The notes below the pieces were generated by a model. That model was given only the letters and a program-made list of their open reading frames with translations, was not told the origin of the DNA and ran no database searches. A program made the position numbers and the translations under genes. A stretch of DNA of 27,571 bases from a virus (Duplodnaviria > Heunggongvirae > Uroviricota > Caudoviricetes): the IMG/VR virus record IMGVR_UViG_2617271072_000003, one strand, 5' to 3'. This document shows, piece by piece, positions 3,206 to 20,026 of this stretch. Numbering within the stretch: position 1 is the stretch's first letter; each line of letters starts with the position of its first letter.

Positions 3206-4258
3206 ATGAAGAATACTGTAAAAATAAACAGTGTTGATTTAATCAACGCTGATTGCCTGCATTTTATTCAGTCCCTGCCTGATGACTCCATTGATCTGAT
3301 TGTTACCGATCCGCCGTACTTCAAAGTGAAGCCCAACGGCTGGGACAATCAGTGGAAAGGGGACGAAGATTACCTGAAGTGGCTGGACCACTGTCTGGCC
3401 CAGTTCTGGCGGGTACTGAAACCAGCCGGAAGCCTTTACCTGTTCTGTGGACATCGCCTGGCATCTGATATCGAGATCATGATGCGTGAACGTTTCAACG
3501 TTCTTAACCATATCATCTGGGCGAAGCCGTCCGGACGATGGAACGGGTGTAATAAAGAAAGCCTGCGGGCATATTTCCCCGCTACAGAGCGCGTTCTGTT
3601 TGCTGAACATTACCAGGGGCCATATCGCGGCAAAAGTGACGATTATGCGGCAAAAGAAAGGGAACTCAAACAGCACATAATGGCACCGCTGATTTCGTAT
3701 TTCAGGGATGCTCGTGCCGAACTGGGTATAACGGCAAAACAGATTGCCGAAGCCACTGGTAAGAAAAATATGGTTTCCCACTGGTTTGGTGCCAGTCAGT
3801 GGCAGTTGCCGAATGAGGCTGACTACCGGAAGTTGCAGGCACTGTTTTCCCGTATAGCGGCAGAGAAATTTCAGGAACAACAACTGGAACAACCACACCA
3901 CCAGCTGGTGGCATCTTATGATTCACTGAATCGCAAATATTCTGAATTGCTGGATGAGTTTAAAACTCTCCGGCGCTATTTCTCCGTATCAGTTTCCGTG
4001 CCTTATACCGACGTCTGGACGCATAAACCCGTTCAGTTCTACCCGGGTAAACATCCGTGTGAGAAGCCTGCGGATATGCTCCGGCAAATAATCAGTGCCA
4101 GTAGTCGACAAGGCGATCTGGTTGCTGATTTCTTTATGGGATCCGGTTCCACAATAAAAGCAGCAATGGCGCTGGGGCGTCGGGCCTTAGGTGTTGAGCT
4201 TGAGTCAGAGCGGTTTAACCAGACAGTGAAAGAGATAAACGAGCTGGTGGGGAAATAA
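3206..4258 (+). CDS. DNA N6-adenine methyltransferase (beta-class, orphan)
   Basis: 350-aa ORF; catalytic DPPY motif near the N-terminus (IVTDPPYF) and AdoMet-binding FxGxG near the C-terminus (DFFMGSGST); no adjacent restriction endonuclease ORF. Confidence 0.85.
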
Positions 4259-5038: not shown

Positions 5039-5502
5039 GCAGAGTAACCGCGATTATCTCCGCTCTGGTTATCTGCATCATCGTCTGCCTGTCGTGGGCG
5101 GTCAATCATTACCGTGATAACGCCATCGCCTACAAAGAACAGCGAGATAAAAAAGTCAGTGAGCTGAAGCAGGCGACCGCCACCATTACTGACATGCAGC
5201 AACGCCAGCGTGCTGCTGATGTACTCGATGCTAAATACACGAAGGAGTTGGCTAATGCGAAAGCTGAAAATGATGCTCTTCGGCGCAAGCTTGATAATGG
5301 TGGTCGGGTGCTCGTCAAAGGAAAATGCTCTGTGCCATCCGCAGCCGAAACTTCCAGCGCCTCCGGCATGGGCAATGATGCCACCGTCGAACTCTCTCCA
5401 GTTGCTGGACGAAACGTTCTCGGTATCCGGGACGGAATCATCAGAGACCAGACAGCACTGAGAACGCTTCAGGAATATATCAGGACGCAATGCCTTCGAT
5501 GA
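5035..5502 (+). CDS. Rz: i-spanin Rz
   Basis: ATG 5035 overlaps the R stop (ATGA); N-terminal TM segment [20 protein letters not shown] followed by a coiled-coil-like periplasmic region. Confidence 0.8.
5255..5461 (+). CDS. Rz1: o-spanin Rz1 (lipoprotein embedded in Rz, +1 frame)
   Basis: ATG 5255 with AAGGAG 8 nt upstream; lipobox LIMVVGC; proline-rich mature part; entirely inside Rz. Confidence 0.72.
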
Positions 5503-5642
5503 TAGCGATAATTTTACTCATCATCCTTCACATTTGGCTCTGTAGACAGGGTGGTGATCACTTCTGGAGTGAATCCAGATTAAACATCTCATTGCTGATG
5601 CTTGAAGTTGAGCATCTGGCGCGCGGTAAGGGGCTGCGTTGA
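5499..5642 (+). CDS. possible small hydrophobic peptide (47 aa), translationally coupled to Rz
   Basis: Hand-translated: ATG 5499 overlaps the Rz stop (ATGA); [47 protein letters not shown]. Below ORF-track cutoff. Confidence 0.25.
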
Positions 5643-5993
5643 GATAAGAGCCAGTCATTACAAATACCAGGATTTAGCCTCGTATTCGCGGGGCTTTTTA
5701 TTGCCATTACAAAAGCCACTCCCTACAGAGTGGCTTTGATAATGGCTTATACCCTACACGGGATAACTTAACTGATATCCCTTTTAAAGGATAAAGGTAT
5801 TCAAGCCTGACACATCATGCGCTGTATCGTCGCCGTATTCCCGTATTAACAGAGACCGTAGCCCGACGGGGAACTCCTTCTGCGCGAGTGTGCGGGAATA
5901 ATCAAAAACGATGCACACCGGGGTTACCGGGTACACATATTTCATCATGCCAGCGAGTCCGGTTCTGGCACGGAAGAAACCGGACGTTATGAT

Positions 5994-6420
5994 TTAGTGC
6001 GGAAATATTTGTGTAGTGTTCTGAATGTTCTCAGTAAAGAGTAATGAATTATCAAAGGTATAGTAATACCTTTTGTTTTCGTGGATATTTGTAATCCATC
6101 TGAAAACCCCTGCTGTAGCAAGATTTTTCCTGTATTCGTAAAATGATAACTCTCCTGATTTGAATCCTTTTAAGGTGGCTTCTATAAGGCATTTATTTTT
6201 TGAAAATCTTACATTTACAACCTTACCCTGTCCTTTTATTAAAACCGTATTATCGTTTTCAAGAACAAGATGAATATTCTCTGTAGCTAAATAGTAAATG
6301 TAATGTGAGACATTGTGACGTTTTTAGTTCAGAATAAAACCAGTGATAGTTTAAATTATTTCGCACTTTATCGAATATTTGTTTAAAAATGGCAACCTGA
6401 GCCATTGTAGTACCTTCCAT
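5994..6420 (-). pseudogene. AT-rich frameshifted ORF remnant, product unknown
   Basis: Hand-translated minus strand: ATG at 6420 opens a 53-codon frame to a stop at 6259-6261; an adjacent frame is open for 109 codons from 6323 to a stop at 5994-5996 with no ATG. The two frames overlap, consistent with one ~140-codon gene broken by a frameshift. Confidence 0.3.
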
Positions 6421-6461
6421 GTGATATGAGGGGCGTAGTCTGCACGATTATCTAAATTGCT

Positions 6462-6695
6462 TCAATCTGGTCTGATCTGTTTTCTGAGCAATTCAGTAAT
6501 GTCACTCTTTTCTTTGTTTGCTTCAGGAGAAACTCTTTTTTCTGAGCACAGTCTCCGGCGGCAGGCTTCAATGACCCAGGCTGAGAAATTCCCGGACCCT
6601 TTTTGATCAAGAGCGATGTTAATTTGTTCAATCATTTGGTTAGGAAAGCGGATGTTGCGGGTTGTTGTTCTGCGGGTTCTGTTCTTCGTTGACAT
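6462..6695 (-). CDS. small ribbon-helix-helix-like DNA-binding protein (possibly YlcI/DUF3950-like)
   Basis: 77-aa ORF; basic N-terminus then NIRFPNQMIEQINIALDQKGSGNFSAWVIEA, resembling an RHH fold; family assignment is recollection only. Confidence 0.45.
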   Translation of the reverse strand: MSTKNRTRRTTTRNIRFPNQMIEQINIALDQKGSGNFSAWVIEACRRRLCSEKRVSPEANKEKSDITELLRKQIRPD

Positions 6696-6894
6696 GAGGT
6701 TGTCCCGTATTCAGTGTCGCTGATTTGTATTGTCTGAAGTTGTTTTTACGTTAAGTTGATGCAGATCAATTAATACGATATCTGCGTCATAATTGATTAT
6801 TTGACGTGGTTTGATTGCGTAGATGCACGTTGTGACATGTAGATGATAATTATTATCATTTTGCGGGTCCTTTCCGGCGATCCGACAGGTTACG

Positions 6895-6906
6895 GGGCGG
6901 CGACCT
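6895..6906. other. cos: cos site: cosN 12-nt cohesive end GGGCGGCGACCT (cosQ upstream, cosB downstream, roughly 6790-7080)
   Basis: Exact lambda cohesive-end sequence at 6895-6906, preceded by ...CCGACAGGTTACG and followed by CGCGGGTTTTCGCTATTTATGAAAA..., immediately upstream of Nu1. Confidence 0.88.
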
Positions 6907-7083
6907 CGCGGGTTTTCGCTATTTATGAAAAATTTCCGGTTTAAGGCGTTTCCGTTCTTCTTCGTCATAACTTAATGTTTTTATTTAAAATACCCTCTGA
7001 AAAGAAAGGAAACGACAGGTGCTGAAAGCGAGCTTTTTGGCCTCTGTCGTTTCCTTTCTCTGTTTTTGTCCGTGGAATGAACA

Positions 7084-7604
7084 ATGGAAGTCAACAAAAA
7101 GCAGCTGGCTGACATTTTCGGTGCGAGTATCCGTACCATTCAGAACTGGCAGGAACAGGGAATGCCCGTTCTGCGAGGCGGTGGCAAGGGTAATGAGGTG
7201 CTTTATGACTCTGCCGCCGTCATAAAATGGTATGCCAAAAGGGATGCTGAAATTGAGAACGAAAAGCTGCGCCGGGAGGTTGAAGAACTGCGGCAGGCCA
7301 GCGAGGCAGATCTCCAGCCAGGGACTATTGAGTACGAACGCCATCGACTTACGCGTGCGCAGGCCGACGCACAGGAACTGAAGAATGCCAGAGACTCCGC
7401 TGAAGTGGTGGAAACCGCATTCTGTACTTTCGTGCTGTCGCGGATCGCAGGTGAAATTGCCAGTATTCTCGACGGGATCCCCCTGTCGGTGCAGCGGCGT
7501 TTTTCCGGAACTGGAAAACCGACATGTTGATTTCCTGAAACGGGATATCATCAAAGCCATGAACAAAGCAGCCGCGCTGGATGAACTGATACCGGGGTTG
7601 CTGA

Positions 7605-7630
<26 letters not shown>
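7084..7630 (+). pseudogene. nu1: terminase small subunit Nu1, reading frame interrupted by a +1 indel
   Basis: ORF 7084..7530 matches Nu1 to ...SVQRRF, then shifts at a T5 run (7500-7504) and stops; the Nu1 C-terminus ...PELENRHVDFLKRD...SEYIEQSG continues in ORF 7385..7630. Confidence 0.85.
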
Positions 7631-11321
<3,691 letters not shown>

Positions 11322-14876: not shown

Positions 14877-15457
14877 ATGGCCATAAAAGGTCTTGAGCAG
14901 GCCGTTGAAAACCTCAGTCGTATCAGCAAAACGGCGGTGCCCGGTGCGTCAGCAATGGCCATTAACCGCGTTGCGTCATCCGCGATATCGCAGTCTGCGT
15001 CACAAGGTTGCCCGTGAGACAAGGGTACGCCGGAAACTGGTAAAGGAAAGGGCCAGGCTGAAAAGGGCCACGGTTAAAAATCCGCAGGCCAGAATCAGGG
15101 TTAACCGGGGGGATTTGCCCGTAATCAAGCTGGGTAACGCGCGGGTTGTCCTGTCCCGACGCAGGCGTCGTAAAAAGGGGCAGCGTTCATCCCTGAAAGG
15201 TGGCGGCAGCGTGCTTGTGGTGGGAAACCGTCGTATTCCCGGCGCGTTTTATTCAGCAACTGAAAAATGGCCGCTGGCATGTCATGCAGCGTGTGGCCGG
15301 GAAAAACCGTTACCCCATTGATGTGGTGAAAATCCCGATGGCGGTGCCGCTGACCACGGCGTTTAAACAGAATATTGAGCGGATACGGCGTGAGCGTCTT
15401 CCGAAAGAGCTGGGCTATGCGCTGCAGCATCAACTGAGGATGGTAATAAAGCGATGA
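14877..15457 (+). pseudogene. Z: tail completion protein gpZ, frame interrupted twice
   Basis: ATG 14877 MAIKGLEQAVENLSRISK...SQSASQ then stop at 15015-15017; middle of gpZ in ORF 14893..15321; C-terminus (FIQQLKNGRWHVMQ...MVIKR) in ORF 15200..15457. Shift points near 15004-15005 and the T4 run 15247-15250. Confidence 0.85.
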
Positions 15458-15852
15458 AACATACTGAACTCCGTGCAGCCGTACTGGATGCACTGGAGAA
15501 GCATGACACCGGGGCGACGTTTTTTTTGATGGTCCGCCCCGCTGTTTTTGATGAGGCGGATTTTCCGGCAGTTGCCGTTTATCTCACCGGCGCTGAATAC
15601 ACGGGCGAAGAGCTGGACAGCGATACCTGGCAGGCGGAGCTGCATATCGAAGTTTTCCTGCCTGCTCAGGTGCCGGATTCAGAGCTGGATGCGTGGATGG
15701 AGTCCCGGATTTATCCGGTGATGAGCGATATCCCGGCACCGTCAGATTTGATCACCAGTATGGTGGCCAGTGGCTATGACTACCGGCGCGACGATGATGC
15801 GGGCCTGTGGAGTTCTGCCGATCTGACTTATGTCATTACCTATGAAATGTGA
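15454..15852 (+). CDS. U: tail terminator protein gpU
   Basis: 132-aa ORF overlapping the Z stop; lambda U-like; contains a T8 run at 15520-15527. Confidence 0.9.
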
Positions 15853-17454: not shown

Positions 17455-20026
17455 ACCGGTAGGCGATCTGGTCGTTGATTTAAGTCTGGATGCGGCCAGA
17501 TTTGACGAGCAGATGGCCAGAGTCAGGCGTCATTTTTCCGGTACGGAAACTGATGCGAAAAAAACAGCGGCAGTCGTTGAACAGTCGCTGAGCCGACAGG
17601 CGCTGGCTGCACAGAAAGCGGGGATTTCCGTCGGGCAGTATAAAGCCGCCATGCGTATGCTGCCTGCACAGTTCACCGACGTGGCCACGCAGCTTGCAGG
17701 CGGGCAAAGCCCGTGGCTGATCCTGCTGCAACAGGGGGGTCAGGTTAAGGACTCCTTCGGCGGGATGATCCCCATGTTCAGGGGGCTTGCCGGTGCGATC
17801 ACCCTGCCGATGGTGGGGGCCACCTCGCTGGCGGTGGCGACCGGTGCGCTGGCGTATGCCTGGTATCAGGGCAACTCAACCCTGTCCGATTTCAACAAAA
17901 CGCTGGTCCTTTCCGGCAATCAGGCGGGACTGACGGCAGATCGTATGCTGGTCCTGTCCAGAGCCGGGCAGGCGGCAGGGCTGACGTTTAACCAGACCAG
18001 CGAGTCACTGACGGCGCTGGTGAATGCCGGTGTGCGTGGTGGTGAGCAGTTTGAGGCGATCAGCCAGAGTGTGGCGCGTTTCTCCTCTGCATCCGGCGTG
18101 GAGGTGGACAAGGTCGCTGAAGCCTTCGGGAAGCTGACCACAGACCCGACGTCGGGACTGACAGCGATGGCACGTCAGTTCCATAACGTGACGGCGGAGC
18201 AGATTGCGTATGTTGCTCAGTTGCAGCGTTCCGGAGATGAAGCCGGGGCATTGCAGGCGGCGAACGAGGCCGCAACGAAAGGGTTTGATGACCAGACCCG
18301 CCGCCTGAAAGAGAACATGGGCACGCTGGAGACCTGGGCAGACAGGACAGCACGGGCATTCAAATCCATGTGGGATTCGGTGCTGGATATTGGTCGCCCG
18401 GACACTGCCCAGGTAATGCTGGAGAAAGCAGAAAAGGCTTTTGATGAGGCGGACAAAAAATGGCAGTGGTATCAGAGCCGGAGCCACCGGCGCGGTAAAA
18501 CCTCAGCATTTCTTGCCAATCTCCGGGGAGCATGGGAGGACAGAGCGAATGCGCAACTTGGGCTTTCAGCCGCCACGTTGCAGGCCGATCTTGAAAAGGC
18601 CAGAGAGATGGCAGCAAAGGACTGGGCCGAGTCTGAGGCATCACGGCTGAAATATACCGAAGAGGCGCAGAAGGCTTACGAACGGCTGCAGACGCCGCTG
18701 GAGAAATATACCGCCCGTCAGGAAGAACTGAACAAGGCACTGAAAGACGGGAAAATCCTGCAGGCGGATTACAACACGCTGATGGCGGCGGCGAAAAAGG
18801 ATTATGAAGCGACGCTGAAAAAGCCGAAACAGTCCGGCGTGAAGGTGTCTGCGGGCGATCGTCAGGAAGACAGTGCTCATGCTGCCCTGCTGATGCTTCA
18901 GACAGAACTCCGGACGCTGGAGAAGCATGCCGGAGCGAATGAGAAAATCAGCCAGCAGCGCCGGGATTTGTGGAAGGCAGAAAGTCAGTTCGCGGTACTG
19001 GAGGAGGCGGCGCAACGTCGTCAGTTGTCTGCACAGGAGAAATCCCTGCTGGCGCATAAAGATGAGACGCTGGAGTACAAACGCCAGCTGGCTGCACTTG
19101 GCGACAAGGTTACGTATCAGGAGCGCCTGAACGCGCTGGCGCAGCAGGCGGATAAATTCGCACAGCAGCAACGGGCAAAACGGGCCGCCATTGATGCGAA
19201 AAGCCGGGGGCTGACTGACCGGCAGGCAGAACGGGAAGCCACGGAACAGCGCCTGAAGGAACAGTATGGCGATAATCCGCTGGCGCTGAATAACGTCATG
19301 TCAGAGCAGAAAAAAGACCTGGGCGGCTGAAGACCAGCTTCGCGGGAGCTGGATGGCAGGCCTGAAGTCCGGCTGGAGTGAGTGGGAAGAGAGCGCCACG
19401 GACAGTATGTCGCAGGTTAAAAGTGCAGCCACGCAGACCTTTGATGGTATTGCACAGAATATGGCGGCGATGCTGACCGGCAGTGAGCAGAACTGGCGCA
19501 GCTTCACCCGTTCCGTGCTGTCCATGATGACAGAAATTCTGCTTAAGCAGGCAATGGTGGGGATTGTCGGGAGTATCGGCAGCGCCATTGGCGGTGCTGC
19601 CAGTGGTGGAGCATCCGCGTCAGGCGGTACAGCCATTCAGGCCGCTGCGGCGAAATTCCATTTTGCGACCGGGGGATTTACGGGAACCGGCGGCAAATAT
19701 GAGCCAGCGGGGATTGTTCACCGTGGTGAATTTGTCTTCACGAAGGAGGCAACCAGCCGGATTGGTGTCGGCAACCTGTACCGCCTGATGAGGGGCTATG
19801 CGGAAGGTGGTTATGTGGCGGTGCCGGAAGTCCGGCGCAGATGCGGCGGGCTGAAGGCATTAATTTTAATCAGAACAATCACGTGGTGATTCAGAACGAC
19901 GGTACGAATGGTCTGCCAGGTCCACAGATGATGAAGGCAGTGTATGACATGGCCCGCAAGGGTGCCCGTGATGAAATTCAGACACAGATGCGTGATGGTG
20001 GCCTGTTCTCCGGAGGTGGACGATGA
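17447..20026 (+). pseudogene. H: tail tape-measure protein gpH, frame interrupted twice
   Basis: ORF 17447..19330 (627 aa, MAEPVGDLVVDLSLDAARF...) stops at 19328-19330; gpH continues in frame 0 (ORF 19353..19889) and returns to the original frame in ORF 19841..20026 (...MRDGGLFSGGGR). The two shifts compensate over 2580 nt, but stop codons intervene. Confidence 0.85.

Follow-up and report, generated by a model that had tools for sequence, protein, structure and literature searches.

The window analysed here, a stretch of 27,571 nucleotides (nt) from the Caudoviricetes virus record IMGVR_UViG_2617271072_000003 (IMG/VR), carries on the minus strand of positions 5994-6420 two overlapping open frames, which are the two halves of a single gene of the DUF1398 family (Pfam PF07166) of lambdoid prophages. 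The frame is broken by one extra T at 6321-6325. This is an ordinary conserved lambdoid DUF1398 gene, and its frame has very probably been broken by a homopolymer-length error of sequencing or assembly. An earlier note on the window, made from its letters alone, had described a gene with a 1-nt insertion or deletion (indel) at a position typical of morons, and had taken it for an inactivated remnant. The gene, the indel and the position have all held up, whereas the inactivation is probably wrong.

A DUF1398 gene split between two frames

The minus strand holds an ATG-initiated frame of 53 codons (6420 to 6259) and a 109-codon open frame that lacks an ATG (6323 to 5997). The two are in different frames and share the stretch 6259-6323. 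Both had been described in the earlier note, together with the absence, from the window's list of open reading frames (ORFs), of any ORF of at least 60 amino acids (aa) lying wholly inside 5503-6460, and these observations were confirmed. The relevant features are the following.

5994-6405, minus strand: DUF1398 gene, with ATG at 6405-6403 and TAA at 5996-5994; 412 nt, one more than the 411 nt of the intact allele WP_000079508.1 (136 aa)
6259-6420, minus strand: 53-codon ATG frame, comprising 5 probably untranslated, 28 native N-terminal and 20 out-of-frame codons, with the stop at 6261-6259
5997-6323, minus strand: 109-codon open frame, equal to residues 28-136 of the intact protein
6321-6325: homopolymer with the extra base and site of the frameshift, T5 on the plus strand (A5 on the coding strand) against T4 in all relatives
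6413-6418, minus strand: GGAAGG resembling a Shine-Dalgarno element, 7 nt before the ATG at 6405 and overlapped by the ATG at 6420

As written, the gene encodes 28 native residues followed by 20 out-of-frame residues, which amounts to a truncated product of 48 aa. Removal of the extra base restores the 136-aa product exactly, down to the C-terminus ...QIFPH, with 28 residues contributed by the 53-codon frame and 108 by the 109-codon frame. The suggestion that both frames belong to one gene of about 140 aa was therefore right. Intact homologues, which the earlier note had proposed to look for, are abundant. A megablast search of 5503-7083 against complete Escherichia coli genomes returned 4,945 records, the best of them 99.9% identical, and the best records are annotated in this region as "DUF1398 domain-containing protein", "YlcI/YnfO family protein" and "hypothetical protein". 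The DUF1398 coding sequence (CDS) of the relatives is intact, with 411 nt and 136 aa (WP_000079508.1).

The assignment to the family is supported by several features. Against the PF07166 profile (gathering score 22 bits), the repaired protein scores 147.1 bits (E 3e-43) and covers the profile in full (positions 1-119 of 119). Taken by itself, the 109-codon frame reaches 118.7 bits over positions 21-119 of 119, and the 53-codon frame alone 20.3 bits over positions 1-24, just under the cut-off. The repaired protein also aligns over nearly its whole length with YdfO, the family member of known structure (PDB 2HH8; E 9e-67). By family hidden Markov model, by the fold of YdfO and by its lambdoid synteny as a minus-strand accessory gene between Rz and cos/nu1, the gene thus qualifies as DUF1398. 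Only the uninterrupted single-domain frame of about 130-140 aa is missing, since the frame as written is broken after codon 28. This deficit is probably a property of the written sequence and not of the organism.

The base composition of the region would by itself have been a less certain guide. The GC content is 29-33% per 200-nt window across 6000-6399 and 31.5% over 5990-6430, whereas the flanks have about 50%. Of 5000 mononucleotide shuffles of 5990-6430, 16 gave an open frame of 109 codons or more, in line with the earlier note's view that such a frame is unlikely by chance. However, when the entire 958-nt stretch 5503-6460 was shuffled, 336 of 5000 replicates (6.7%) contained one, so that the argument is suggestive only. 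The length of the frame suggests a gene, being uncommon by chance but not extraordinary, and composition alone is no proof. The shuffles of the full stretch are also what could be said for the view that there is no gene at all, just chance open stretches in AT-rich non-coding DNA. That view is refuted by the Pfam score of the 109-codon frame, by the alignment with YdfO and by the intact CDS in thousands of genomes; indeed, the Pfam score of this frame alone settles the status of the region as a gene. The earlier note had been prepared to give up the gene if neither frame had a database homologue, and instead a strong Pfam match and thousands of annotated CDSs were found.

With respect to the start of the gene, the earlier note was correct that the 53-codon frame has an ATG at 6420. 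However, this is probably not the true start, which is more plausibly the RefSeq start, the ATG at 6405-6403. The stretch ATGGAAGG, which holds the upstream ATG, supplies the GGAAGG element (read off the alignment), and this element may act as the ribosome-binding site for the ATG at 6405. Some gene callers use the upstream ATG, which leads to a 141-aa form (P0001).

The gene, its family and its position were all known before. The allele is a catalogued RefSeq protein, and the structure of the family has been solved since 2006.

The extra base and the indels of the window

When positions 5980-6440 of the window are compared with strains 13KWH46 and CREC-2, the sequences are identical in 461 aligned columns except for a single gap column. 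On the coding strand, the change is from GAACT-AAAA-CGT to GAACT-AAAAA-CGT, and the gene contains no substitution at all relative to the intact allele. The earlier note had expected a 1-nt indel between about 6259 and 6323, and the extra T lies at the upper edge of this interval. The A5 version of the site appears to be confined to the window. An 81-nt query centred on the site found no match of at least 99% identity in the 2,202 E. coli records (2,200 genomes) that carry the gene; every best match was 80/81 over an 80-nt span. Exact matches to a 37-nt pattern with A5 were likewise absent from IMG/VR viral contigs, contigs of GTDB species representatives and JGI metagenome contigs, while the corresponding A4 pattern matched at least 120 viral contigs.

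The frameshift in the DUF1398 gene is one of many in the window. Alignment of its full 27,571 nt with fEC.1 opens 18 gaps (27 gap bases) and shows 1 substitution. The same 27 gap bases are found in the comparison with isolate 602, with 1-2 substitutions across the fEC.1 and 602 comparisons, and they reappear in the comparisons with 600468 and 13KWH46 wherever those loci cover the window. All 18 events are private to the window. The relatives, whose sources are a pigeon (China) and human samples (Spain, Bangladesh and Hong Kong), differ from each other by 0 gaps and 0-68 substitutions. The contrast between 18:1 and 0:68 is highly significant (Fisher's exact test, p = 1e-17), and the ratio of indels to substitutions is thus far above what the natural divergence of the lineage would lead one to expect. 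In overall identity, the window is close to known sequences, with 99.9% for the best E. coli genome and 99.2% for the best phage record (Kati). The private indels are located as follows.

1737, 2629, 2663-64, 2793, 6321, 7500, 9980-89, 10445, 13031, 15004, 15247, 15526-34, 19310, 19816, 26644 and 26804: indels found in the window and in none of the relatives

Most of these events resemble the one in the DUF1398 gene. Fifteen of the 18 are A-only or T-only (12 T, 3 A), 11 of these fall in runs of at least 4, and insertions outnumber deletions by 14 to 4. The excess of T over A events on the plus strand arises although A and T runs of at least 4 are similar in number (143 and 127), and this bias fits a strand-specific read error. 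Thirteen events fall in 8 genes, which include nu1, portal, Z, U, the tape-measure gene and stf, so that essential genes for packaging, head and tail are hit by the same kind of indel as the DUF1398 gene. In nu1/nohD (7084 to 7630), an extra T in the T4 run at 7496-7500 leaves an ORF of 148 aa (7084 to 7530) instead of the 181 aa in relatives, while the C-terminal portion is read in a different frame, from 7385 to 7630. In the portal gene, an insertion of 9 nt that no relative has ("AT" and T7, 9980-9989) creates a T13 run in 9980-9995; this T13 pattern had no exact match in viral, GTDB-representative or metagenome contigs. With a further extra T at 10445, the portal gene is split into ORFs of 240 aa and 393 aa. 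The tail gene Z and the tape-measure gene (627 + 178 aa and further parts) are likewise split by indels. In places, one indel makes up for another: in tail gene U, a +2 and a +1 event within 9 nt (15526-15534) restore it, and in the tape-measure gene a +1 at 19310 is compensated by a -1 at 19816 after about 500 nt.

An artefact is favoured because the T5 allele is unique, because the window is rich in indels and poor in substitutions, and because the indels are mostly A-only or T-only and break essential genes. On this comparison of sequences, the organism itself would carry an intact gene for the 136-aa protein, and the extra base would have arisen during sequencing or assembly, when the T4 run became T5. 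Two points weigh against so simple an account. Some of the indels are not simple homopolymer miscalls, namely the 9-nt insertion at 9980-9989 and the single-base events at 15004, 15534, 19816 and 26804, so that the cause of the differences is not purely homopolymer-length error. In addition, there is a small but real chance that the extra base is a genuine +1 mutation private to the strain.

A genuine pseudogene would result if a real +1 slippage had occurred in the A4 tract, perhaps in the course of the decay of a defective prophage. The written sequence does encode a truncated product, and a real and an erroneous indel look the same at the sequence level. Moreover, short homopolymers are natural hotspots of +1 and -1 mutations. 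However, the lesion is shared by none of the 2,202 E. coli records and was found in none of the three further collections, and the gene, being free of substitutions, lacks the signs of relaxed selection. The 18 indels to 1 substitution of the window also stand against relatives with 0 indels per 8-68 substitutions. Decay in nature should produce substitutions too. We know of no natural pattern of decay in which 18 indels accumulate while point mutations are all but absent, and even mismatch-repair-deficient E. coli gain more substitutions than indels. A pseudogene is therefore unlikely. The inactivated gene remnant of the earlier note was not borne out: but for one base, the gene is identical to an intact allele, the altered allele was found in no other sequence searched, and indels in a pattern typical of sequencing or assembly error extend over the whole window.

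It is more doubtful still that the indels are all real and reflect a strand-biased, homopolymer-targeted insertion process that has thrown the DUF1398 gene and many structural genes out of frame almost without point mutation. If this very improbable scenario were true, it would represent a mode of prophage inactivation so far undescribed.

The A5 tract could also be thought of as a phase-variation switch or a site of programmed frameshifting. In the context CUA-AAA-ACG, a +1 slip of tRNA-Lys from AAA to the overlapping AAA would be predicted to regenerate the wild-type ...ELKRHNVS. However, in every homologue examined the tract is A4 and the gene keeps to one frame, and A5 was found nowhere else. 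Recoding is effectively refuted by this lack of tract conservation. Neither an adjacent stop, nor an obviously slow A-site codon, nor an upstream stimulator was seen at the site, and five consecutive A are too few for transcription to slip efficiently or for phase variation of the classical slipped-strand type.

With an artefact as the preferred explanation of the extra base, the main value of the finding is in quality control: what appears to be a pseudogene is a known gene that is intact elsewhere. The window holds about 18 probable indel errors, and its other split genes, frameshifts and remnants (in nu1, portal, Z, U, the tape-measure gene and the tail fibre gene) are suspect as well. For this window, the "frameshifted remnant" should be read as a warning about data quality. 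The window adds nothing to what was known of DUF1398 as an AT-rich accessory gene that is conserved in lambdoid phages, including lambda.

Relatives and possible role of the DUF1398 protein

The window gene is orthologous to ybcV of the DLP12 prophage, ydfO of the Qin prophage and p78 of lambda. It is closest to the loci that encode WP_000079508.1 (13KWH46, fEC.1, CREC-2 and 600468), where the DNA is identical over the gene and its flanks, and where the same neighbours (Rz, a 50-aa ORF, a ylcI/ynfO-family gene, cos and nu1) are found in the same orientation. The only difference is that these loci lack the extra T at 6321-6325 that breaks the window's frame after codon 28. YdfO of the K-12 Qin prophage, for which the structure was determined by nuclear magnetic resonance (PDB 2HH8), and its paralogues YbcV (DLP12) and YcgX represent a different allele.

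Lambda p78 ("putative envelope protein", NP_597781) and its counterparts in HK629 and HK630 are located on the same strand and in the same slot between the lysis genes and cos as the window gene. The "putative envelope protein" of HK629, which is annotated as similar to NP_597781, is 76% identical over 135 residues. The two types differ in length and in their surroundings. The lambda-type ORF is annotated with 177 aa, including an N-terminal extension of 41 residues, whereas the window allele has 136 aa. In the lambda type, bor lies between the p78-type ORF and Rz, whereas the window has no bor and in its place about 350 nt without an annotated gene (5643-5993). We have not used the "putative envelope protein" label of lambda, because it is inherited, no experimental basis for it was found, and YdfO was solved as a soluble protein. 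The "head protein" label of the PHROG database (phrog_413) is also an inherited annotation without support, and was set aside as well.

The literature that we found on DUF1398, ybcV and ydfO consists of mentions of expression and regulation, with no mechanism or established function. The genes ycgX, ybcV and ydfO have been described as mutual homologues (PMC3509220). Expression of ybcV and ybcW is activated by PdhR (PMC7660256). An imidazolium ionic liquid strongly raises the expression of ydfO (PMC4077768), and ydfO also responds to the induction of DicC (PMC11430063). Overexpression of YdfO is reported to raise the resistance to oxidative stress, according to a report as cited in PMC4077768. 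The regulation data concern the K-12 copies ybcV and ydfO only, and not the copy in the window.

The family is small, with 184 clusters at 50% identity (E <=1e-3) among 1.84 billion representatives, and many of these are fragments. According to the predicted model, the protein is built from two successive helix-helix-three-strand units. No transmembrane segment or signal peptide is evident in the DUF1398 protein, and no convincing structural match other than YdfO was found among solved structures or viral predicted structures. The near-invariant positions of the family are hydrophobic or structural (L32, Y40, T46, N48, L100, A101, A103, G104, V105, W108, R117 and Y119), and none of the invariant residues looks catalytic. 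The protein may be a stand-alone, small, soluble accessory ("moron") protein that would be expressed in the lysogen. Very tentatively, it might bind a host or phage macromolecule rather than act as a catalyst.

Other roles were considered and dismissed. A defence function was not supported by PADLOC, which matched neither the DUF1398 nor the YlcI/YnfO protein, nor the 50-aa ORF. The neighbouring genes could in principle form a toxin-antitoxin pair, with the YlcI/YnfO protein as a ribbon-helix-helix-like antitoxin and the DUF1398 protein as the toxin, and a weak HicB-like PHROG match (E 0.007) speaks for this idea. However, a toxin-antitoxin pair was rejected because distant DUF1398 homologues do not have a constant partner, which also argues against any obligate two-gene system with YlcI/YnfO. 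Their neighbours vary, and can be yqeI/yqeJ-like regulators, a GerE regulator, or Q and the holin of another lambdoid phage. Two such homologues, with 29-31% identity, are present in Logan contigs (L127 from DRR526056 and L131 from SRR23754875) outside the Rz-cos slot. One of them is next to yqeI/yqeJ-like regulator genes, and another is located between the antiterminator gene Q and the holin gene of a different lambdoid phage.

In public metagenome gene calls (P0014 and P0010), YnfO and DUF1398 occur as "fusions" of 233 aa, in a cluster of 761 members. In these, the TGA stop codon of ynfO is read as W (...RPDWSNLD...). The "fusions" look like the product of gene calling with a code in which TGA stands for Trp, and not like real fusion proteins.

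Genomic setting between Rz and cos

The region of accessory genes to which the DUF1398 gene belongs extends from the end of Rz (5502) towards cos and the ATG of nu1 (7084). The earlier note was correct in placing the gene between the lysis cassette and cos, and in comparing its position with the one where lambda carries bor, since the HK629 homologue adjoins bor. Two features define the setting.

6895-6906, plus strand: cosN core GGGCGGCGACCT, an exact match 189 nt before the ATG of nu1, and the right-hand boundary of the accessory-gene region
6462-6695, minus strand: ylcI/ynfO-family gene (77 aa, DUF3950), identified by PF13132 (74.8 bits), by NCBIfam YlcI_YnfO_N (35.7 bits) and by the RefSeq annotation in relatives

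The DUF1398 gene runs on the minus strand and opposes the late operon. The ylcI/ynfO-family gene is on the same strand, directly upstream, at a distance of 56 nt from the start of the DUF1398 gene. We take this order to be the ynfO-ydfO arrangement of the K-12 Qin prophage. A promoter and terminator scan of 5400-7200 gave counts at the level expected from shuffled sequences and was thus uninformative, with no promoter-like site on the minus strand. Rfam searches at gathering thresholds detected no RNA family in the whole window.

On the side of Rz, a 50-aa ORF (5490-5642, plus strand) overlaps the end of this gene. It matches phrog_11822 (E 9e-38), has a hydrophobic N-terminus, and is annotated as "hypothetical protein" WP_001139681 in relatives. 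The interval of about 350 nt from this ORF to the stop of the DUF1398 gene (5643-5993), which is where bor is found in lambda-type phages, has no annotated gene in relatives. Within it lie a hairpin that resembles a terminator and has a T tail (5676-5695, plus strand) and an ORF of 54 codons on the minus strand (5784 to 5948), for which no Pfam or PHROG match was obtained.

Further upstream, a DNA methyltransferase of 350 aa is encoded at 3206-4258 (plus strand), just before the holin gene. Two hypothetical genes on the minus strand, at about 1000-2600, lie between Q and the methyltransferase gene, and one of them is frameshifted at 1737. The interval between Q and the methyltransferase gene is the slot of the toxin genes in Stx phages.
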